DNA from: Micrococcales bacterium
GTDB taxonomy: Bacteria; Actinomycetota; Actinomycetes; Actinomycetales; WQXJ01
Direction of reading: 5' to 3'
DNA: 64,000 nucleotides
Assembly (NCBI GenBank): GCA_009784895.1
Contig: WQXJ01000002.1
Coordinates: 16,903 to 80,902, forward strand
Made by a program: the position numbers and the translations under genes. Under the pieces are notes generated by a model that was not told the DNA's origin, did no database searches, and worked only from the letters and a program-made list of their open reading frames with translations. This document shows, piece after piece, positions 2,222 through 60,971 of the stretch; position 1 is the stretch's first letter; each line of letters begins with the position of its first letter.

Positions 2222-2333
2222 GCCTAGGCCACATGTACATAACGCGTCTGGCCGGTTGATCCGGCAAAACGCGGCAGACAGAGACCGGGGCCGGCACCAA
2301 ACACCCTTCTGACGCCTGTCGAGCCAAACCGCG

Positions 2334-2397
2334 GAGCCGCCGGGCGCTGCCGCACTTGGTCGAACCCGATCCGGCCTTGGGCCACGCTGTCAGGATC
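2334..2397 (-). pseudogene. Degenerate relic copy of the last ~64 nt of glyQS, 97 bp downstream of the real 3' end
   Basis: Segment 2334-2397 aligns with 2431-2494 at 50/64 identity, including a perfect 19-nt block GCACTTGGTCGAACCCGAT. The relic translates to ...AQGRIGFDQVRQRPAA versus the real C-terminus [16 protein letters not shown]. Confidence 0.75.
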
Positions 2398-2416
2398 GCT
2401 GTCTCCGGGCACCTGG

Positions 2417-3841
2417 CTAGGCCAACAACCGAGCCGCCAGGCGCTCTGGCACTTGGTCGAACCCGATTCGCTCTTGAGCCATAGTGTCGCGGTCCCTGAT
2501 AGTGACTGCTTGGTCCTCCAGGGAGTCAAAGTCGACGGTGATACAAAGCGGGGTACCAATCTCGTCTTGGCGCCTATACCGCCGGCCAATCGCACCGGCA
2601 TCGTCGAACTCAACGTTCCAGTGCCGGCGCAACCCGGCCGCCAGGTCGCGGGCCTTGGGCGACAAATCGGCGTGGCGAGACAGCGGCAACACGGCGGCCT
2701 TGACCGGGGCCAGGCGCGGGTCAAGCCGCAGCAAGGTGCGCGTATCGGTGCCGCCCTTGGTATTAGGCGCCTCGTCCTGGGTGTAGGCCTCGACCAAAAA
2801 CGCCATCACCGAACGCGACAGCCCGGCCGAAGGCTCAATCACAAACGGGACGTAGCGCTCGCCTGTGGCCTGCACAAACACTGACAAGTCTTGGCCCGAA
2901 TGCTGGGCGTGGGTGGTCAGGTCGAAGTCAGTCCGGTTAGCGATACCCTCCAACTCGCCCCATTGAGAGCCGGCAAAACCAAAGCGGTACTCAATGTCGA
3001 CAGTGCGCTTGGAGTAATGCGACAGCTTTTCCTGCGGGTGCTCGTAGTGGCGCAGGTTGTCGCGCTTGATGCCCAGGTCGACGTACCAGTCGGTGCAGGC
3101 GTCGATCCAGTGCTGGTGCCATTCCTCGTCCGTGCCCGGCTCAACGAAGAACTCAATTTCCATCTGCTCAAACTCCCGCGTGCGGAAGATGAAGTTGCCT
3201 GGCGTGATCTCGTTGCGGAAGGCCTTGCCCACTTGGCCGATGCCGAAAGGCGGCTTCTTGCGCGAAGTCTGCAAGACGTTGGCGAAATTGACGAAAATGC
3301 CTTGGGCTGTCTCAGGCCTGAGATAGTGCAATCCGGTGTCATCTTCGACCGGCCCCAAATGGGTGCGCAGCAGTCCGGAAAACTGTTTTGGTTCGGTCCA
3401 CTTGCCCCGGCTACCGCAATTGGGGCAGGGCACACCGGCCAGGCCGCCCTCCGGTGGGCGGCCCTTGCGCTCTTCGAATTCCTCTTCAAGTGTGTCTGCC
3501 CTGAATCGCTTGTGGCATTCGGTGCATTCGACCAGCGGGTCGGTAAAGACATCGACGTGACCAGAGGCCTGCCAGACCTGGCGCGGCAGAATGATCGAGG
3601 AATCAAGGCCAACAACGTCTTCTCGGGCTGTGACCATCGACTGCCACCACTGGCGCTTGATGTTCTCTTTCAGCTCCGCCCCCAGCGGGCCATAGTCCCA
3701 GGCGGATCTCGTGCCGCCGTAGATTTCGCCGCAGGGAAAGACAAAGCCCCGGCGCTTGGCTAGGGAGATGACTGAGTCAAGGGTTGATGGCTGGGCCACT
3801 TTCTGCTCGCCTTCGCTAGGTTTCGGGTGGCTGGCTGCCAT
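2417..3841 (-). CDS. glyQS: Glycine--tRNA ligase (dimeric class II GlyRS)
   Basis: Motifs [38 protein letters not shown] and a C-x2-C...C-x2-C insertion. The track ORF starts at 3994 inside the repeat array. The internal ATG at 3841 ([14 protein letters not shown]...) gives a typical ~474-aa protein. Confidence 0.9.
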
Positions 3842-3974
3842 CCAACCGGCGAGCTTACATCGAACGAAGGTCGAGTCGAAAGCAAACTCGCTTGCATTGG
3901 CGAGGCCAAGGAGTTGTTGACGAGGGCGCGGCCCCAGGGGCAGCCCAATGCTGGCCTCGACCAGTCCATCCACC

Positions 3975-4162
3975 GAGAGTTCAGGGTTTCGCATGATCCC
4001 GGATACTCGCGAGTTCAGGGCTTGGCATCAATCCCGTCCTGCCGTAACTCGGACTCACGCAAGTCGGGGCCTGCTGTCAAACCCTGAACTCGAGTCACAT
4101 CGGCGTGCTGCTAGGCCCTGGACTTCAGTCACTTGGGCGTGCTGTCAAACCCTGAACTCGCG
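3975..4162. repeat. Core-repeat array R2 (glyQS / znuA divergent region)
   Basis: Two forward cores (GAGTTCAGGGTTTCGCA, GAGTTCAGGGCTTGGCA) are followed by inverted cores TGCTGTCAAACCCTGAACTCG (twice) and TGCTGCTAGGCCCTGGACTTC. Confidence 0.9.
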
Positions 4163-23574: not shown

Positions 23575-23962
23575 CCCCCGCCCCCATTTCAGCCAGTCCG
23601 AGGTTTCGCAGCATGGTGCCACCGCCAGGGCTCGGCCCACCGCTTTCACCGAGTTCAGAGTTTCGCAGCACAGCCACCGCCCCCATATCAGCCAGTCCGA
23701 GGTTTCGCAGCACGGTGTCAAACCCTGGACTCGCCTGGGGGACATGATGTCAAGCCTCGGAATCGCGTGGGAGAGGTGCTGTCAAGCCTCGGACTCGCGT
23801 CACCGACAGTGGTGTCAAGCCTCGGACTCGCGTAGGAGAGGTGCTGTCAAGCCTCGGACTCGCGTCACCGACAGTGGTGTCAAGCCTCGGACTCGGTTGG
23901 AAAGGAGTGGTGACAAACCCTGGACTCGCGTTGGGGGTGGTGACAAACCCTGGACTCGCGGT
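23575..23962. repeat. Core-repeat array R12 (M23 peptidase / hypothetical gene)
   Basis: Three forward cores (CAGTCCGAGGTTTCGCAGCA type) are followed by about 8 inverted cores (GTGTCAAGCCTCGGACTCGCG, GTGACAAACCCTGGACTCGCG). This includes a 65-bp unit repeated twice (GTGCTGTCAAGCC at 23776 and 23841). Confidence 0.95.
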
Positions 23963-23976
23963 TTGTCGGGGCGGCG

Positions 23977-28033: not shown

Positions 28034-28282
28034 CCCCCCTTTTTTCGCCGAGTCCGGGGTTTGGCAGCACACCTGTTTGCCTCCCCCTTTTTCGCCGAGT
28101 CCGGGGTTTGACACCACCTCACCTGGTACCTGCTACCCCCGCCAATTCGCCGAGTCCGGGGTTTGCACCACCCCACCTGGTACCTGCTACCCCCGCCAAT
28201 TCGCCGAGTCCGGGGTTTGGCAGCATGCTGTCAAACCCCGGACTGGCTGAAATGGCCATGGTGCGAAACCCCGGACTGGCTG
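28034..28282. repeat. Core-repeat array R13 (DUF4191 / glnA)
   Basis: Four forward CGCCGAGTCCGGGGTTTG(G)CA copies then two inverted copies. It includes the 38-nt near-perfect palindrome AGTCCGGGGTTTGGCAGCATGCTGTCAAACCCCGGACT (28207-28244). Confidence 0.95.
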
Positions 28283-42615: not shown

Positions 42616-42714
42616 CCCCCCCCAACTCACCGACTCCAGGGTTTGGCACCACGCTTTTTCCGCGAGTCCAGGGTTTGGCATCACCCTTTTCCGCGAGTTC
42701 GGGGTTTGGCATCA
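42616..42714. repeat. Core-repeat array R17 (histidine kinase / hypothetical convergent region)
   Basis: Three forward cores (CCGACTCCAGGGTTTGGCACCA, CGCGAGTCCAGGGTTTGGCATCA, CGCGAGTTCGGGGTTTGGCATCA). The last three nt (TCA, 42712-42714) are the stop codon of the minus-strand gene. Confidence 0.95.
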
Positions 42715-53379: not shown

Positions 53380-53409
53380 CGCGCCCAGGAAACCTCCAAG
53401 CCCCACCGC

Positions 53410-53463
53410 CTGAATGGACCCGGCTCCTTTTGAGCCAGCCCATTCAACCTCGCTCGGGCGCTG
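53410..53463 (+). repeat. kgd-upstream 54-nt element, copy 1
   Basis: CTGAATGGACCCGGCTCCTTTTGAGCCAGCCCATTCAACCTCGCTCGGGCGCTG. It contains an imperfect hairpin (GAATGG...GGCTC / GAGCC...CCATTC). Confidence 0.85.
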
Positions 53464-53505
53464 CAATCCTCAACCTGCGGCCTCGTCAACAGCTGGTCGC
53501 TCGGT

Positions 53506-53558
53506 CTGAATGGACCCGGCTCCTTTGGAGCCAGCCCATTCAACCTCGCTCGGGCGCT
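53506..53558 (+). repeat. kgd-upstream element, copy 2
   Basis: Identical to copy 1 except the loop (CTTTG versus CTTTTG), offset by 96 bp. It ends ~100 nt before the kgd GTG. Confidence 0.85.
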
Positions 53559-53662
53559 GTAGGATCGAACGGTGGCAAAGCTGCCCACTGGCTTGCCTGG
53601 CGGTCTAGCCGTCACGGCAGGTATCTGCCCATCTACTGGTTCGGACGGAGAGGTCCACTGAA

Positions 53663-56600
53663 GTGACAACGACTGAGCACTCACCCATAGGCCCCAAGGC
53701 TCTAGGAGCCAACGCTTGGCTGGTCGACGAACTGCACCAAAAGTATTTGACTGATAAGTCATCGGTTGACCCGGCCTGGTGGGACTTCTTTGAGGACTAC
53801 CAGCCCTCGTCAAGCCGCACCCCCAAGGCTCCGGCCGCGCCCTCGGCCGCAGCGGCCACGATTGCACCCGAACAGGCCGCCGGCCCGGTGCCAATCGCTA
53901 GGCCGGAACCAGTCCCCCGCGACCATCTGGTCCGCAAGCCAAAGCCAGTTGACCTGGCGGTCGATGTCACTCCCGAGGCCGCCGCCGTCACCGCGATTGC
54001 GCGCTACGCCTCATCCGAACCCGAAGCCCTGACCGAAAGCGGTGAGGCCACCGAAGACGAGTCCGTCATCCTCAAGGGCCCGGCCATGCGCACGGCGGTC
54101 AACATGGCCGCCTCGCTGGGCGTGCCCACAGCCACCTCGATTCGTGAAGTGCCGGTCAAGGTGCTGATCGAAAACAGGATGCTGATCAACAACCAGCTGG
54201 CCCGCGACCGCGGCGGGCGGGTTTCCTTCACCCACTTGATCGCCTACGCCATGGCTGAGGCGCTGAGGGAAAGCCCCGACATGAACGTGGCTTATGCCGA
54301 CGAAAAGGGCAAACCGACCCTGCTGCGTCGCAAGCATGTTGGCCTGGGTTTGGCCATTGACCTGACCAAGCCGGATGGCACCAGGCAGCTGTTTGTGCCA
54401 TCGATCAAGAAGGCTGACACGCTGACCTTCGCCGAATTCTGGGCGGCCTATGAGGACATTGTGCGCCGGGCTCGGGCCGGCAAGCTGACGGTCGACGACC
54501 TTTCCGGTGTGACCTGCTCGCTGACCAACCCTGGTGGCATTGGCACCAGCGCCTCAGTGCCGCGGCTGATGCCCGGACAGAGTGTCATTGTTGGCGTGGG
54601 CGCCATGACCTATCCGGCGGCTTTCCAGGGCGCCAACGACGAAACCCTGTCTGATTGGGGCGTCTCGAAGCTGCTGACTCTGACCTCGACCTATGACCAT
54701 CGGGTTATCCAAGGGGCCCAGTCCGGTGAATTCTTGCGCCGCATGGAGGCCAAGCTGTTAGGCCAGGACGGCTTCTACGAGCGGGTCCTGGCTTCGCTGC
54801 GCATTCCCTATGAGCCATTCCGCTGGGAACGGGATCTCAGGGCGCCAATGGAGGCCAAGACCAACGCCGTGGCCCGCTTGATCCACTCCTACCGGGTGCG
54901 CGGACACATGATGGCGGATATCGACCCACTGGCCTATCGCCAACGCGGTCATGAAGACTTGATGCTGACCAACTACGGGCTGTCAATCTGGGACATGGAC
55001 CGGGTCTTCCCAACCGGCGGCTTCTCTGAGAAATCAGAGATGACCCTGCGGGAAATCGTCACCCGGGCGCGTGACACTTACTGCCGCAAGATCGGCGTCG
55101 AGTACATGCATCTCGATGATCCTGACCAGCGCGCCTGGCTATCCAAGCGCCTTGAGCGCCCGGCCGAACCAATGGAACCGGAAGACCAAGAGCGCACCTT
55201 GCGCAAGCTCAACCAAGCCGAAGCCTTTGAGACGTTCTTGCAGACCAAGTACATTGGCGCCAAGCGCTTCTCGCTAGAGGGTTCGGAGTCAGTCATCCCG
55301 ACAATTGACGCCATGATCAGCCGCTACGCCGACCACGGGGCGCATGAAGTGGTCATCGGCATGGCCCACCGCGGCCGGCTCAACGTTCTGACCAATGTGG
55401 CCGGCAAGTCCTACGCCCAGGTCTTCTCAGAGTTCGAAGACGACCAAGACGCCATTACGGTTGAGGGCTCAGGCGACGTCAAGTATCACCTAGGTACTGA
55501 GGGAACCTGCACCGCGCCATCGGGCGCCCAAATCAGTGTCTACATGGCTGCCAACCCGTCCCACCTCGAAGCTGCGGACGGCGTTGTTGCGGGTATCGCC
55601 CGGGCCAAGCAAGACCGGCTTAACCTGGGCGCAGGCGCCCCGCAGGCGGTCGTGCCCGTGGCCATTCATGGTGATGCGGCCTTCGCCGGCCAGGGCGTTG
55701 TCATGGAAACCCTCAACCTGGGCAAACTGCGTGGCTACCGCACCGGCGGCACCATTCACATCATCATCAACAACCAGGTCGGTTTCACGGCCGGCACCGT
55801 TGATTCGCGTTCGACCTACTACTGCACCGATATGGCCAAGGGCTTTGACGTGCCGATCTTCCACATCAACGGCGACGACCCGGAGGCTTGTATCCAAGCC
55901 ACCTTGCTGGCGGCCGATTTCCGCGATCACTTCCAGTCCGATGTGATTGTTGACCTGATTTCCTATCGCCGCCGCGGCCACAACGAGGGCGACGACCCCT
56001 CGATGACCCAGCCGGTGATGTACCAGTTCATCGACCAGAAGCGGTCAGTGCGCAAGCTCTACACCGAGGCCCTGATTGGCCGCGGCGACTTGTCAATGGA
56101 ACAGGCCGAGGAATCGCTCAAGTTCTTCCAGTCTGAGCTGGACCGGGCCTTGACCGAAACGCGCGACGCGCTGACGGCGGCCAAAGAGGGCAACAAGGAA
56201 GCCGCCAAGGGCCTGTCGCACGGCCTCGAAGTGCCGGTCTCGCAGCGCGAGGAGGCCGGAGTGCTATCCGGCTGGAAGACGGCCATCAGCCCGGCTGTGA
56301 TCGAGCGGGTGGGCCAGGTCTTTGTCAACCCGCCGGCTGGATTCACCGTCCACCCCAAGTTGGAGTCGCTGCTCCAGAAACGCGCCCAAATGGCCAAAGA
56401 AGGCGGGATCGACTGGGGTATGGCGGAAATGCTGGCCTACGGCTCGCTGATGCTAGAGGATATTCCGGTCCGCCTGACCGGCCAGGACTCACGCCGCGGC
56501 ACCTTTGCCCACCGCCATGTCACCTTCCACGACAAGGTCAACGGCTCGGAGTGGACCCCGCTGTGGTTCCTTTCTGACCATCAGGCCAAGATCTTTGTCT

Positions 56601-57430
56601 ACGATTCGGCCCTGTCGGAGTACTCGATCAGCGCCTTCGAATACGGCTACTCGGTTGAGCGGCCGGACGCGTTGGTGATGTGGGAGGCGCAATTTGGTGA
56701 CTTCTTCAATGGCGCCCAAACGGTGGCGGACGAGTTCGTCTCCAGCGCCGAACAGAAGTGGCAGCAGCGCTCCTCTGTCGTGTTCTTGCTGCCGCACGGC
56801 TACGAGGGTCAGGGCCCGGACCACTCTTCGGCCCGGATCGAGCGCTGGCTACAGCTCTGCGCCGAAGACAACATGCGGATCGCCCAGCCCACGTTGCCGG
56901 CCAACTACGCGCATCTGCTGCGTTTGCAGGCCTACAACCGGCCGCGCAAGCCGTTGATCGTCTTCACACCCAAGTCCGGCCTGCGCCGCAAAGAGGCCGT
57001 CTCTTCACTGGAGGATTTCACCACTGGCACGTTCCAGCCTGTCATTGTCGACCCCGGTGCCGAAGGCGCCTCCAAGGTTCTGCTTTGCACCGGCCGGATC
57101 TACTGGGATCTCAGGGCTCGGCGGGCCAAGCTCGACCAGGCCGAACAAGCCAAGCTTCAGCTGGTCCGCTTCGAGCAGCTCTATCCGCTCGATCCGGAGG
57201 TTTTGGCCCAGGTCACGGCCAATTGGGCGGCCGATGCCGACGTCGTTTGGGTTCAAGACGAGCCGGAGAACCAGGGCGCTTGGACCCATTTGATGCGCCA
57301 GCTACCGGCCCATCTTGGTGGGCGCCAGCTGCGTGTCGTGGCCCGGCCAGATGCCGCCTCGCCGGCCACCGGTTCACATAACGGGCACGACGTTGAGCAG
57401 CGTGAGCTGCTGAACCGCGCCTTCGCCTAG
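53663..57430 (+). CDS. kgd: Multifunctional 2-oxoglutarate dehydrogenase/decarboxylase E1 with fused E2-like succinyltransferase domain (Kgd/OdhA type)
   Basis: N-terminus ANAWLVDELHQKYL, an acyltransferase domain with intact TYDHRVIQGA, and ThDP E1o motifs GMAHRGRLNVL and HGDAAFAGQG; 1255 aa with no lipoyl domain. Confidence 0.9.
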   Translation: MTTTEHSPIGPKALGANAWLVDELHQKYLTDKSSVDPAWWDFFEDYQPSSSRTPKAPAAPSAAAATIAPEQAAGPVPIARPEPVPRDHLVRKPKPVDLAVDVTPEAAAVTAIARYASSEPEALTESGEATEDESVILKGPAMRTAVNMAASLGVPTATSIREVPVKVLIENRMLINNQLARDRGGRVSFTHLIAYAMAEALRESPDMNVAYADEKGKPTLLRRKHVGLGLAIDLTKPDGTRQLFVPSIKKADTLTFAEFWAAYEDIVRRARAGKLTVDDLSGVTCSLTNPGGIGTSASVPRLMPGQSVIVGVGAMTYPAAFQGANDETLSDWGVSKLLTLTSTYDHRVIQGAQSGEFLRRMEAKLLGQDGFYERVLASLRIPYEPFRWERDLRAPMEAKTNAVARLIHSYRVRGHMMADIDPLAYRQRGHEDLMLTNYGLSIWDMDRVFPTGGFSEKSEMTLREIVTRARDTYCRKIGVEYMHLDDPDQRAWLSKRLERPAEPMEPEDQERTLRKLNQAEAFETFLQTKYIGAKRFSLEGSESVIPTIDAMISRYADHGAHEVVIGMAHRGRLNVLTNVAGKSYAQVFSEFEDDQDAITVEGSGDVKYHLGTEGTCTAPSGAQISVYMAANPSHLEAADGVVAGIARAKQDRLNLGAGAPQAVVPVAIHGDAAFAGQGVVMETLNLGKLRGYRTGGTIHIIINNQVGFTAGTVDSRSTYYCTDMAKGFDVPIFHINGDDPEACIQATLLAADFRDHFQSDVIVDLISYRRRGHNEGDDPSMTQPVMYQFIDQKRSVRKLYTEALIGRGDLSMEQAEESLKFFQSELDRALTETRDALTAAKEGNKEAAKGLSHGLEVPVSQREEAGVLSGWKTAISPAVIERVGQVFVNPPAGFTVHPKLESLLQKRAQMAKEGGIDWGMAEMLAYGSLMLEDIPVRLTGQDSRRGTFAHRHVTFHDKVNGSEWTPLWFLSDHQAKIFVYDSALSEYSISAFEYGYSVERPDALVMWEAQFGDFFNGAQTVADEFVSSAEQKWQQRSSVVFLLPHGYEGQGPDHSSARIERWLQLCAEDNMRIAQPTLPANYAHLLRLQAYNRPRKPLIVFTPKSGLRRKEAVSSLEDFTTGTFQPVIVDPGAEGASKVLLCTGRIYWDLRARRAKLDQAEQAKLQLVRFEQLYPLDPEVLAQVTANWAADADVVWVQDEPENQGAWTHLMRQLPAHLGGRQLRVVARPDAASPATGSHNGHDVEQRELLNRAFA

Positions 57431-57440
57431 TTTCGACGCA

Positions 57441-57494
57441 AAAACGCCAGTCCGAGCCTTCGCAGTTTGCTGCTAGGGCTCGGACTGGCGTTTT
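57441..57494. terminator. Bidirectional intrinsic terminator between kgd and the convergent solute-binding-protein gene, built from a head-to-head repeat pair
   Basis: AAAACGCCAGTCCGAGCC (57441-57458) pairs perfectly over 18 bp with GGCTCGGACTGGCGTTTT (57477-57494). There are inner GCAG/CTGC pairs and T-runs on both strands. The arms read AGTCCGAGCCTTCGCAG, i.e. a family core. Confidence 0.8.
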
Positions 57495-57583
57495 GTGGGG
57501 TTCTTTTTTCGCTGTCCGACGCCGGCTGCCGTAGTTGACCTGGCCGTCACCCGTTCGCTTGGCGGCGGTTCCAGGAGCTGGGG

Positions 57584-58837
57584 CTACAAGCCGGTTTCAG
57601 AGGCTTGTTGGATTTCCCCAAGCACATCGGCCGGCTTGGCGCCGGAGGCAATCTTGCCGATGTTTTGCTGGATCAAGCCCTGTGTTGAACCCCAATCTGG
57701 GTTGATCGAGGGGTAGAACTTGGCGTAGGGCAACAGCTCGTTGAATGGAGCGAATTCGGTTTTGGTGGTGCCTTCGGCGCCGGACTTGGTCACCGGCAAG
57801 AAACCCTCGGTGTCAACAAACTTGACGTAGTTGTCCTTGGAGTAGAAGAAGTCGAGGAAGGCGCCAACCGCCTTGCCCCTGGCCTCATCGCCGCCGTTCT
57901 TGAAGGCCATCAGGTGGTCAGCCACACCCAGTGTCACCTGGTCTGTGATGTTGGTCGGGAATGGCGACACGGAGTAGTTCAGATCCGGGGCTTGGTCAGC
58001 GATCATGCCCATGATGGGGGGCAAGCCAACCACCATGCCGCACTTCGACTGCATGAAAACATTGTTGAGCATCGGGGTGCGCTGGGTGGCGCCGGGGTCC
58101 GGCTCGGTCAGGCCGCCGTCAATTAGTTTGACCATGAAATCAGCTGCCTCGATGTTCTTCGGGTCGTCGATGGTCAACGTCTCGGCGTCGCCGTAGCTAC
58201 CGCCATTCGACATGATCCAAATGCCCAGCTCGCCCTGGGCTTCCTCCGAGCCCAGTGGCATGCAATAGCCGTAGATGTCTTTGTCCATGGCGACAATGGC
58301 TTTGGCTGCCGATTCCAGTTCCTGCCAGGTGGATGGTGGATTGGCTGGGTCCAGACCGGCTTCGTTGAAGATGTCATCGTTGATGAACAGGGCCCGGGCC
58401 GAGGCGATCAGCGGGAAGCCGAACTGCTGGCCGTTCATGGTGGCGTTGGCCACAAACGACTCCTGGAAATCGGCGATGGTTTCAGGCGCGAGAATCTCAT
58501 CGGCTGAGTAGAGCAACCCGTCCTGGACGTAGTTCGAGAAGGCATCAATGCTCAAGATGTCAGGAGTCTGGTTGCCTTGAACCTTGGTCTTCATGACCTC
58601 GTTGATGTTCTCCCATGACTGCATCTCGAGGGTGATGGTGATGTTGTCATGGCTGGCCTCAAAGTCCTTGATGTAGCCCTCCCAAAGTGACTTCGTCACG
58701 TCCGAATAGACCGCAGCCACCATGGTCAGCTCGATTTTGTCGCCGCCACCGTTGCCGCTGCCGCTATCGCCACAGGCGCTCAAAGCCAGCGCCCCAATGC
58801 AGGCGACCCCGAGCGCTCCTAACCACTTCCTGTTCAC
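57584..58837 (-). CDS. Extracellular solute-binding lipoprotein (family 1 sugar SBP), no adjacent permease genes
   Basis: MNRKWLGALGVACIGALALSACGD lipobox and a 417-aa SBP_bac_1-like sequence. Confidence 0.8.
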   Translation of the reverse strand: MNRKWLGALGVACIGALALSACGDSGSGNGGGDKIELTMVAAVYSDVTKSLWEGYIKDFEASHDNITITLEMQSWENINEVMKTKVQGNQTPDILSIDAFSNYVQDGLLYSADEILAPETIADFQESFVANATMNGQQFGFPLIASARALFINDDIFNEAGLDPANPPSTWQELESAAKAIVAMDKDIYGYCMPLGSEEAQGELGIWIMSNGGSYGDAETLTIDDPKNIEAADFMVKLIDGGLTEPDPGATQRTPMLNNVFMQSKCGMVVGLPPIMGMIADQAPDLNYSVSPFPTNITDQVTLGVADHLMAFKNGGDEARGKAVGAFLDFFYSKDNYVKFVDTEGFLPVTKSGAEGTTKTEFAPFNELLPYAKFYPSINPDWGSTQGLIQQNIGKIASGAKPADVLGEIQQASETGL

Positions 58838-58906
58838 TGCGAACTCCTTCGTTCTAGTTTGGTTATTTGTTAGGCAGGCTAACAGATTACTCCTTTCTGC
58901 GGACTA

Positions 58907-58926
58907 TTGGCGCCAGCTTGGCGCCA
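58907..58926. promoter_or_regulatory. Direct repeat of palindromic TTGGCGCCA in the SBP/ROK divergent region
   Basis: TTGGCGCCA at 58907-58915 and 58918-58926, each containing the palindrome TGGCGCCA. It is a candidate operator. Confidence 0.3.
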
Positions 58927-58989
58927 AATGTCACCAAACCGTTACTTACCGCACTGACGCCTACCCACCCCGGCCCCCAACCTCCGCAC

Positions 58990-59090
58990 CCCTCGACTTC
59001 ACCGAGTCCGAGGTTCTGCACCACCGCGGACCGCCGAGTCCGAGGCTCCGCACCACCGCGGACCACCGAGTTAGAGGTTTCGCACCACTC
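58990..59090. repeat. Core-repeat array R21 (SBP / ROK divergent region)
   Basis: A 32-bp unit CCGAGTCCGAGG(T/C)TC(T/C)GCACCACCGCGGACC repeated three times forward (cores begin at 59002, 59034 and 59066). Confidence 0.9.
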
Positions 59091-59144
59091 CGCCATGGGC
59101 GGCCAGGGTTGACTTAGAATTGTTATGCCTGTTTACTAATAAGA

Positions 59145-60281
59145 GTGACCGACGCCCACGCCCCCTTCAGCCACGGCCAGCTTGGTCAGCGGCTTAGGCC
59201 CACTACCAAGGCCCAACCAACCGATTCGCGCGTGCACAACCGCGCCTTGGTCCTAACCACCCTGTTCCACAAGGGCCCACTTTCGAGGGCCGATTTGGCC
59301 CGAGCTACCGGCCTAACCAGGGTGACCATCTCTGATCTGGTTCAAAAACTGATCGACGCTGGTTTGGTCTCTGACCAGGGGCCAGTCTCATGCGGACGGG
59401 TCGGCAAACCGGCCAATATTGTCTCAATGACGCCCAGCGCCGGCTACGTCTTGGCAGTCGATCTCTCGCTCGGATTGACCGCCCGAACAGCGGTCCTCGA
59501 CCTCTCCGGCCAGTCCGTTTTGCGCCGCGAAGTACCAATTGGCGACACCCGCGGCGCGGCCGATGTCGAGGCCCTCGAACAGGCCATCCGCCAAATGCTG
59601 CTCGAGGCTCCCAGCCCGGTAGTTGGCGTTGGCATTGCCACACCTGGCGTTGTCGAAACCAACGGTGTAGTTCGTTCCGCCGCTAACCTTGGCTGGGTTG
59701 ACCTACCGCTCAAGCAACGTCTCGAAGACCTTATTGACCTGCCAGTTTACGTAGACAACGACGCCAACTTGGCGGCTCGGGCTGAATTCACCTTTGGCGG
59801 CGCCAACCCAACCGGCATGATGCTAATCATGGTGGGCCTGGGGCTCGGCGCCGCTTTGCTGCTCGACGGTGTGTTGCTCGAAGGCCCGACCTCTTCGGCC
59901 GGCGAGATTGGCCACGTCACGGCGGTCGACAACGGCGAGCCGTGCGCCTGTGGCCGTGCCGGTTGCTTGGAAACTGTGTTTTCGGCCGGTTCGCTGGACC
60001 AGATCCAAGGCGATCTAGACAAGTTGGAACAAATTGGCGCAACCACCGGCACGGTCCTGGCCCCAGTTGTCAGCTCCCTCAACCTCAACGAGATTGTGGT
60101 GGCCAGCCCAAACCAAGAACTGCCGGACCAGTTGTTGCAGGCCATCGCCGGTTCCATCAAGCAAAGGGTGCTGCCGGCCACCAGCCAAGGCTTCTTGGTT
60201 CGACCAGCCCACGGTGGCAGCGAATCGGCTTTGCTGGGCGCCTGCGCCCTGGTCCTTAGCCGCAGGTACGGCATCGCCTAG
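59145..60281 (+). CDS. ROK-family transcriptional regulator
   Basis: N-terminal wHTH (NRALVLTTLFHKGPLSRADLARATGLTRVTISDLV) and a ROK domain with the zinc motif EPCACGRAGCLE. Confidence 0.85.
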   Translation: MTDAHAPFSHGQLGQRLRPTTKAQPTDSRVHNRALVLTTLFHKGPLSRADLARATGLTRVTISDLVQKLIDAGLVSDQGPVSCGRVGKPANIVSMTPSAGYVLAVDLSLGLTARTAVLDLSGQSVLRREVPIGDTRGAADVEALEQAIRQMLLEAPSPVVGVGIATPGVVETNGVVRSAANLGWVDLPLKQRLEDLIDLPVYVDNDANLAARAEFTFGGANPTGMMLIMVGLGLGAALLLDGVLLEGPTSSAGEIGHVTAVDNGEPCACGRAGCLETVFSAGSLDQIQGDLDKLEQIGATTGTVLAPVVSSLNLNEIVVASPNQELPDQLLQAIAGSIKQRVLPATSQGFLVRPAHGGSESALLGACALVLSRRYGIA

Positions 60282-60348
60282 AGACATTTCAGCCGAGGCG
60301 CCAAAACTCGCGGTAGGGGTTTGGTGACAAAGCCTGGACTCGCGGTTT
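60282..60348. repeat. Single hairpin unit R22 flanked by a 46-bp duplication of the ROK gene 3' end
   Basis: The insert AGACATTTCAGCCGAGGCGCCAAAACTCGCGGTAGGGGTTTGGTGACAAAGCCTGGACTCGCGGTTT contains overlapping forward and inverted cores. The flanking direct repeats are 60236-60281 and 60349-60394 (41/46 identical). Confidence 0.9.
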
Positions 60349-60475
60349 GGGCGCCTGCGCCCTTGTCCTCAGCCGCAGGTACTCCATCGCCTAAACCCGA
60401 TGGCCAATCTGTGGCACAATTACCTCCCGGCGAGGCACAATCCTCGCCGCTGAGCCATGAGGAAAGCAGGGCCCA

Positions 60476-60550
60476 ATGTCAAAGCGCGCACGCAAACGCC
60501 GGACCCGGAAGAACTCTGGCGCCAATCACGGCAAGCGGCCAAACGCCTAA
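60476..60550 (+). CDS. 24-codon micro-ORF resembling actinobacterial ribosomal protein bL37
   Basis: ATG at 60476 preceded by GAGGAAAG. The peptide MSKRARKRRTRKNSGANHGKRPNA is highly basic, and its C-terminal ANHGKRPNA is as I remember for mycobacterial bL37. It is too short for the ORF track. Confidence 0.65.
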   Translation: MSKRARKRRTRKNSGANHGKRPNA

Positions 60551-60677
60551 GGCGCCGCGAAAACTGCCAGGGGCGTCGGGCACCAGTTCAGCTCCGACGA
60601 CCAAGCGCTGCCTGGCCGGGGGCGCCAACCAAGCTTCAGCTCGCCAAGGCCGCCAACCGAGCTCGACTGCGCCAGGC

Positions 60678-60971
60678 TTAAGAGGCCTGGCCAGCGAATT
60701 GGGCCCGCAACTTGGCGATGTTGGCCGCGACCCGCTCTTTGAGCTCATCTGGAGCCGGTTCGAAGCAGACCTCGTGGATGACGGTCTTGAGCTTGTGGCG
60801 CACGGTGTGCTCATAGGCGCAGGAATCGCAGCCATCCAAATGGTCCTGCATGGCCTGGAGCTCGTCAATCGTCAATTCGTCGTCAATGAACTCATACAGG
60901 CGCGGTAAAGCCTTTTCGCAGTCGTACTCTTCAAAGGCGGCGGCGTGCGCCAGCGCATCTGGCGTGGTCAT
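60678..60971 (-). CDS. rshA: Zinc-binding anti-sigma factor (RsrA/RshA, ZAS family)
   Basis: H-x3-C-x2-C motif in [11 protein letters not shown] plus an upstream Cys (EYDCEKAL). It overlaps the sigma gene stop by 4 nt. Confidence 0.85.

Follow-up and report, generated by a model that had tools for sequence, protein, structure and literature searches.

The insertion sequences IS1549, from Mycobacterium smegmatis, and IS1634, both placed in the IS1634 family, are reported to generate direct repeats that are long and variable in length (8-514 bp; PMC2266710), and one element of the IS1182 family has been reported to target terminator hairpins (PMC4923244). The locus described here resembles the IS1549 and IS1634 cases in that an actinobacterial insertion is flanked by a target duplication well beyond the usual 2-14 bp, and their range includes the 46 nt found here. 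However, IS1549 and IS1634 are insertion sequences of 1.5-2 kb with their own transposase and defined inverted ends, whereas the DNA between the two copies here is a 67-nt dispersed hairpin repeat. Furthermore, the other 20 tested clusters of this repeat in the DNA analyzed, as well as three in an extension of the contig, are without such a direct repeat.

Several other systems share parts of this arrangement. The REP/BIME sequences and the Rickettsia palindromic elements (RPEs) also consist of abundant short hairpin units that are mostly intergenic, often lie just past stop codons, and form clusters of alternating orientation. To our knowledge, long target duplications do not accompany the insertions of REP or RPE elements. 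The locus also recalls integrative elements that create attL and attR sites at the ends of tRNA or protein genes: the gene end is intact, and a slightly altered copy of it, about 46 nt long and with its stop at the matching point, has been displaced downstream. However, at this locus 67 nt of host repeat separate the copies, the region contains no integrase ORF, and there is no cargo. Template switching of the FoSTeS/MMBIR type and serial replication slippage produce short templated insertions together with re-copied adjacent sequence, and have in common with this locus GC-rich microhomology at the junction and hairpin-forming sequence at the breakpoint. Both kinds of mechanism have been described mainly in eukaryotes, for larger copy-number changes. 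PMC3597517 reviews them. The types of event considered below are already known, and the present locus is a further example.

A duplicated ROK gene end

The window analyzed is a 64,000-nt stretch of DNA from an uncultured actinobacterium, recovered from a termite-gut metagenome. All positions given refer to this stretch. The features of the locus are the following:

59145-60281, + strand: intact gene for a ROK-family transcriptional regulator of 378 amino acids with a C-terminus of native length (ORF list, Pfam ROK and HTH domains, alignment of homologues)
60236-60281, + strand: copy A, the working copy, consisting of the last 15 ROK codons and the TAG stop; sequence GGGCGCCTGCGCCCTGGTCCTTAGCCGCAGGTACGGCATCGCCTAG
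60282-60348, + strand: X, a 67-nt block of repeat-family DNA composed of a truncated head motif, then a reverse unit, then a forward unit
60296-60356, + strand: repeat-block hairpin (predicted fold of -35 kcal/mol, z -3.17, with 0 of 200 shuffles as good)
60349-60394, + strand: copy A', a relic ROK 3' end that is non-coding, with a TAA stop and a Gly to Ser change; sequence GGGCGCCTGCGCCCTTGTCCTCAGCCGCAGGTACTCCATCGCCTAA
60372-60415, + strand: relic hairpin (predicted fold of -23 kcal/mol, z -5.85, 0 of 200 shuffles, 83% of the ensemble)
60410-60420, + strand: promoter-like motif TGTGGCACAAT; the same 11-mer lies upstream of bL37 in the relatives L004, L005 and L007
60476-60550, + strand: bL37 gene of 24 codons (MSKRARKRRTRKNSGANHGKRPNA), read from the sequence; the L004 orthologue has a precomputed Pfam HR_L37 match

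A preliminary description of this DNA had reported that the last 46 nt of the ROK gene recur at 60349-60394 with 41 of 46 positions identical, in the same frame and with a stop in the same place, and our reading of the sequence confirms this in full. If the preceding T is counted, 42 of 47 positions agree, and repeat detection returned the pair in a slightly shifted form (60235-60280 and 60348-60393, 42/46, spacing 113). A search with a 34-mer, allowing up to three mismatches, identified copies A and A' as the only sites in the window and none in 100 shuffles; the chance expectation is zero.

The two copies differ at five bases spread over four codons. Two of the codon differences are silent (CTG to CTT at 60251/60364 and CTT to CTC at 60257/60370), one replaces glycine with serine (GGC to TCC at 60270-71/60383-84), and the last exchanges one stop for another (TAG to TAA at 60281/60394). 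The final base of the stop codon may be part of the junction and not of the duplicated segment. The ROK C-terminus aligns with that of its homologues, which finish in LVLSGQLGVS before the stop, and has the same end point. The glycine at position -3 of this terminus is present in 59 of the 59 homologues listed, and since copy A keeps it (GGC), copy A is the conserved one and copy A' the relic. With copies that have diverged by about 11%, the duplication is best seen as an old scar.

We considered whether copy A' might itself be coding. It cannot form part of a longer ORF, which is ruled out by an in-frame TAG at 60314-60316. Apart from the Gly to Ser change, the codon differences (three of four) are silent or exchange one stop for another, a proportion that is not significant as a sign of selection on A' as coding sequence (P ~0.18-0.3, binomial estimate). 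We also rejected a derivation of A' from the 3' end of a paralogous ROK gene, with no second match in the window or in the contigs of the source metagenome.

The arrangement is also not the artefact of one assembler, because across the region two other contigs, L009 (ENA MEGAHIT, 100 kb) and L010 (Logan), match the window with 100% identity, so that three assemblies give the same bases throughout. A single termite-gut data set is probably the source of all three. Contigs of the source metagenome matched at 80-85% likeness show this one arrangement and no variant form; among them there is neither a joint bypassing the 113 nt nor another locus resembling the 46-mer or the insert. This population check used contigs, which drop rare variants. 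A search for RNA runs gave none.

The repeat-family block and the two hairpins

The 67 nt between the copies are related throughout to a hairpin repeat that is abundant in the window, with the core GTGCCAAACCCTGGACTCGCG. Their right part is a palindromic head-to-head pair (CTCGCGGTAGGGGTTTGG / TGACAAAGCCTGGACTCGCGG, 60307-60345), in which the reverse unit (60307-60324) is degenerate and the forward unit (60324-60344) is well kept, with 2 mismatches to the core. The best match of the forward unit is found at 23938-23965 (27 of 28 nt, including the tail CGCGGTTTG). The left part contains a truncated head motif, CATTTCAGCC, that also serves as a head motif of the units at 23585 and 28254, and the string GCCAAAAC-TCGCG, which aligns with the head of the unit at 28193. 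The length of X is that of a full head-to-head element, such as the one at 28193-28258. In alignment, however, X is without the outermost C-run and G-run termini that full elements carry. The preliminary description had placed one head-to-head unit and about 25 nt between the copies. The pair is indeed present, but the remaining nucleotides appear to be family-derived too, as judged from their head motifs.

The same description spoke of a 67-bp hairpin lying between the copies. There is a hairpin at this position, but it runs 7 nt into A': its outermost 7 bp are formed by AGGCGCC (60296-60302) and GGCGCCT (60350-60356), the latter being the start of A'. Because the outer stem uses the first bases of A', the palindromic end of the element and the target overlap by 7-8 nt. 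No second copy of X occurs within the window, and no other contig of the source metagenome matches it at 80% or more as a potential donor. The divergence of about 11% accumulated since the event could hide the donor.

Past copy A' lies a second hairpin. Its arms are the 3' half of A' (GCCGCAGGT...CCATCG) and the next 21 nt (CGATGG...ATCTGTGGC), and the TAA of the relic sits in its loop. After copy A, the corresponding sequence shows no such fold (z +0.81). This hairpin was probably once the ROK gene's own terminal hairpin, and since the relic stop lies in the loop, the right edge of the duplication falls in the loop of that probable former terminal hairpin. The 3' arm runs into the promoter-like motif TGTGGCACAAT, with the DNA following A' starting 15 nt ahead of it. 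A consensus scan of 60150-60700 gave neither a sigma-70-type promoter nor a canonical terminator. Two further proposals concerning this region were rejected: that a hairpin is conserved at the bL37 promoter across relatives (the folds of the relatives have z ~0), and that A' is homologous to the region upstream of bL37 in L005 (the alignment is unconvincing).

The repeat family, its other clusters and related loci

Within the window the family numbers at least 82 units in 64 kb (at up to 5 mismatches; 0 in shuffles), which is over one unit per kb. When up to 6 mismatches are allowed, they form 24 intergenic clusters. The units are arranged either as same-orientation arrays with a period of 32-34 nt, which hold most of the copies, or as head-to-head pairs like the one in X. 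The arrays have grown by tandem duplication with periods of 32-34 nt and of 89-146 nt (89, 97, 99, 111-112, 126, 134 and 146). At 12 or more genes the family starts 3-28 nt past the stop, with its C-rich head abutting the stop codon. The family shares features with REP/BIME-type sequences: its units are short, imperfect palindromes, they are extragenic and clustered, there are 82 of them in 64 kb, and pairs of them form hairpins.

According to the preliminary description, its case would weaken if no analogous duplications flanked the repeats elsewhere. We compared 90 nt on each side of the 21 well-supported clusters. With a score of 34, where the null has a mean of 6.9 and a 99th percentile of 10, the ROK cluster is the only one of the 21 above chance. 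At the other 20 tested clusters of the window, several of them young (0-1 mismatches per unit), no flank repeat reaches 10 nt, and no flank duplication is found at three further clusters in a 7.6-kb extension of the contig. Given that only the ROK cluster, among 21 plus 3, shows such a duplication, a long target duplication is not a hallmark of this family; it is the exception, not the rule. Long, variable direct repeats at several copies, in the style of the IS1634 family, do not occur here: 64 kb and the additional 7.6 kb contain a single case.

These results bear on the interpretation of the locus as an insertion footprint. The geometry fits this claim, with an intact gene end, a repeat block of element length and a relic copy, and for these same reasons the entry of repeat DNA with 46 nt of target copied is the simplest account. 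A regular signature of the family it is not, as it is seen at 1 of 21 clusters. The locus had also been put forward as the most direct evidence that the repeats are mobile or recombinogenic. It is informative about their recombinogenic nature; as direct evidence on how the repeats move it is weak, and by the criterion of the preliminary description itself, the case for a family-wide footprint loses strength.

One way to obtain this geometry would be insertion by a transposase or integrase, in which a MITE-like head-to-head element enters at cuts staggered by 46 nt and gap filling creates a 46-bp target-site duplication, as for IS1549 and IS1634. The direct repeat exactly brackets an insert of element length, and the long, variable repeats of those two elements (PMC2266710) provide a precedent. 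Additionally, the duplication has its right edge in a strong hairpin's loop, and terminator hairpins are reportedly the target of the IS1182-family element mentioned above (PMC4923244). A contig from the JGI metagenomes that carries the repeat family (L011) has an IS1182-family transposase 400 nt from a family cluster. However, the inverted repeats of this IS1182-type element bear no resemblance to the family core, and IS1272 reportedly gives target deletions rather than duplications. The silence of the other 20 and three clusters, several of them young, stands against such an enzyme, as do the absence from X of the C-run and G-run termini and the predominance of same-orientation tandem arrays, which are not MITE-like. 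No transposase was noticed among the ORFs of the window, a minority of which were scanned against family libraries. We consider insertion by such an enzyme possible but unlikely.

A sensitive self-comparison of the whole window gave only three local duplications of sizeable length outside the family: the ROK duplication, one at glyS, and a 54-nt hairpin pair at 53410 and 53506. The same comparison also returned two short matches inside one gene and one that resembles weak family units. At the 3' end of glyS there is a full tandem duplication of 97 nt (2307-2500), ~72-84% identical, in which the differences are mostly non-silent. Neither the glyS duplication nor the 54-nt pair brackets a family unit.

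The glyS case shows that a gene end in this genome can undergo plain tandem duplication, with a period of 97 and no family unit involved. The ROK locus might therefore have arisen in two steps, first by a plain 46-nt tandem duplication across the ROK stop (A-A') and later by colonization of the site right after the functional stop by the family. Landing exactly at the A/A' junction would be in keeping with the usual position of the family, which starts within 3-28 nt of the stop at 12 or more genes. Against this, two independent events are needed at one point, the direct 46-nt tandem repeat, which is unstable, must persist until colonization, and the match between the outer stem of the hairpin and the first 7 nt of A' is left unexplained. 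Such a sequence of events is unlikely in our view.

A relative provides a different precedent. In L006 the last 15 nt of a MerR gene, its stop and a family-like 35-nt unit are tandemly duplicated with a period of 53, giving the layout A-X-A'-X' and showing that in this lineage a gene end can be caught up in local duplication. The ROK locus could have passed through the same stage if slippage had produced a 113-nt tandem duplication (A-X-A-X) from which the second hairpin was then lost by palindrome deletion. The period of 113 is within the higher-order range of the arrays (89-146 nt), and strong hairpins are prone to deletion. Two complete head-to-tail copies are found at glyS and in L006, unlike at ROK, where the periodic stretch of 113 + 46 nt amounts to 1.4 copies and X is not related to the 67 nt that come after A'. 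Beyond A' there is no trace of a second X; the DNA there starts 15 nt before the motif that is conserved upstream of bL37 in relatives lacking ROK at this position, and it pairs with A'. The second event would have to have been precise, and we regard this history as quite improbable.

We did not find an empty site, defined as copy A joined directly to ACCCGATGG with a single 46-mer, among the relatives examined, and none of them is syntenic. The best match of the ROK protein in a set of one genome per species is only 30% identical, and there is no match in the JGI metagenomes. The best ROK homologues overall, at 54% and 51% identity, are not in a syntenic context. The nearest relatives by SigH are 82%, 79% and 75% identical and have other genes adjoining bL37. 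In the two relatives at 82%, L004 and L005 (the latter from a termite-gut Micrococcales MAG), the gene order is ABC ATPase, ABC-2 permease, bL37, rsrA and sigH. The window has further genes between the permease gene and bL37, namely kgd, one for a solute-binding protein, and ROK. The junction between ROK and bL37 is therefore a synteny breakpoint, as the relatives have the ABC-2 permease gene next to bL37. The repeat family is absent from the relative loci L001-L007, which represent little DNA.

The breakpoint allows for a reading in which the locus is the leftover of a larger rearrangement, with A' as the last piece of a second or older ROK gene or as the attR-like half of a decayed integrative element. 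It is the ABC-2 permease gene, not ROK, that adjoins bL37 in the nearest relatives, and the silent and stop-to-stop differences between the copies are of the kind expected between alleles that were once functional, at the non-significant level given above. In addition, a length of 46 bp would be typical of an att identity block. However, the copies enclose no integrase, no ROK remnant and no foreign DNA, only 67 nt of the host's own repeat; the invariant glycine is lost in A'; and no paralogous 46-mer exists elsewhere in the metagenome contigs. A leftover of this kind is very unlikely.

Origin of the duplication

X was not simply present downstream of ROK before a tandem duplication, because the arrangement A-X-A'-Y has no second X. 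The repeat DNA came with the duplication or after it, or a second X was lost later. The reading that we favor, with a probability of roughly 0.45, is that one repeat element was inserted by template switching during replication or repair and that 46 nt were re-copied in the process. It would have been an old, single accident of DNA synthesis that placed a hairpin repeat of element length in the ROK 3' end and left 46 nt of the target copied twice.

The proposed course is as follows. During replication or break repair, a growing strand would have copied the ROK gene through its stop codon, jumped to a repeat element at another site and used about 67 nt of it as template. It would then have returned to the ROK template 46 nt behind the point of departure, guided by pairing of the GC-rich microhomology (T)GGGCGCC common to the palindromic end of the element and to the gene. 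Synthesis would have repeated the last 46 nt and continued into the region upstream of bL37. The outcome would be the gene end (A), the repeat hairpin (X) and the relic gene end (A'). Such an event may have survived by being neutral, as the upstream copy remains joined to the gene and retains the stop codon, leaving ROK intact. The relic would have retained its old pairing partner beside the promoter-like motif of bL37, so that its hairpin can still form. We infer that there was a single event, that template switching was its enzymology, and that a donor locus existed.

Template switching is favored for several reasons: the insert is the size of an element but has ragged ends, GC-rich microhomology at the right junction completes the hairpin, the break is located in the loop of a hairpin, the locus stands alone among the clusters, and the lineage shows abundant duplication of the slippage type. 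Since the end of the element and the target share 7-8 nt, a join guided by microhomology is what would be expected, whereas the chance of such sharing at the right junction is ~4^-6 for a transposase joining to an arbitrary target. The absence of the C-run and G-run termini from X fits copying from inside a donor rather than the transfer of an element with defined ends. However, GGCGCC is its own reverse complement and is not rare at 63% G+C, so part of the 7-bp overlap could be a coincidence or the product of later quasi-palindrome correction. The preliminary description had noted that 46 bp is far beyond the target duplications of MITEs and typical IS elements and had pointed to slippage or template switching; the reading favored here agrees.

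A more speculative proposal, which we think rather improbable, is that the repeats are moved by an enzyme acting at structured gene ends, where it would attack the two target strands at points offset by tens of bases, in a ruler-like manner comparable to CRISPR repeat duplication and IS1634, and that gene-end duplications are its occasional footprint. The duplication might also have pulled apart two functions that had previously shared the 46 nt, with copy A continuing to code for the ROK C-terminus and A' being kept as a hairpin arm beside the bL37 promoter.

One event cannot establish a mechanism, and as a single fossil in an uncultured organism this one has limited wider importance. The ROK duplication is nevertheless a real, old, one-off scar of rearrangement. 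It is informative about the recombinogenic character of the repeats and is not evidence for a distinctive mechanism of transposition. The arrival of a unit of this abundant hairpin repeat beside unique sequence offers a rare site at which the joining can be read. What can be read here points to error-prone copying, by template switching or slippage, over a clean cut-and-paste enzyme. The locus also illustrates that insertions at gene ends survive only if the last codons of the gene are re-created. In addition, the repeat hairpin and the relic hairpin now lie immediately ahead of the bL37 gene, which encodes a tiny ribosomal protein, and they may affect the expression of this gene.

Duplicated gene ends in the window and in a relative

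The glyS-like gene (2417-3994), which encodes a class II aminoacyl-tRNA synthetase, and a MerR-type gene in the contig of a relative (L006, 3866-4501) each carry a tandem duplication at the 3' end:

Window 2307-2500, minus strand: glyS-like 3'-end tandem duplication, period 97
L006 3779-3883, minus strand: MerR gene-end tandem duplication (JGI 3300010049, SigH 75%)

The former spans the final ~80 nt of the gene, the stop and ~15 nt downstream. Its downstream copy is decayed, with the stop lost and mostly non-silent changes, and the family repeat is absent from this copy (window 2307-2500). In the MerR-type gene the last 15 nt, the stop and a family-like 35-nt unit are duplicated with a period of 53, a layout of A-X-A'-X' in which A is the gene end, X the unit, and A' and X' their second copies.

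Borders of the kgd-ROK block and the bL37 upstream region

In the loci of the two nearest relatives (L004 and L005, SigH 82%) bL37 directly follows the ABC-2 permease gene, whereas in the window (53380-60400) kgd, the solute-binding protein gene and ROK sit between them. Local A-X-A duplications are found at both borders of this 7-kb block. A hairpin-forming segment distinct from the main repeat family lies at the permease side:

Window 53410-53463 and 53506-53559: two copies of a 54-nt segment, with the ABC-2 permease stop on one side and kgd on the other

The copies are 98% identical and 96 nt apart, and have the same A-X-A geometry as the ROK locus.

Upstream of bL37, TGTGGCACAAT (60410-60420) is kept in three relatives. 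A second GGCACAAT (60434-60443) follows 21 nt beyond it and falls within the loop closed by an 8-bp GC hairpin (60428-60449).

Repeat units at stop codons, in L011 and around GGCGCC

The family begins right at the stop codons of at least 12 window genes, its C-rich head abutting TGA, TAG or TAA:

Window 7193, 21947, 28033, 42615 and 32131: example stops directly followed by the family

The stop-to-core distance is 3-28 nt (13-14 nt in five cases); at 42712 the unit itself immediately follows the stop TGA. Among JGI metagenome contigs, only L011 carries the exact family core:

L011 588-710: family units (3-4)
L011 1086-2672: IS1182-family transposase ORF (NF033551: 257 bits, cut-off 270)

The ORF lies 400 nt from the units, and its inverted repeats, each of 17 nt, are at 1027-1043 and 2814-2830; no sequence link to the family emerged.

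The palindrome GGCGCC sits near the start of both 46-mers and is also present in the repeat block:

Window 58907-58926, 60237-60242, 60297-60302 and 60350-60355: GGCGCC

The first interval, in the divergent region between the solute-binding protein gene and ROK, has it in two copies of TTGGCGCCA. The palindrome is also central in some head-to-head pairs (8296, 16826). GGCGCC may be an operator or a recombination motif.
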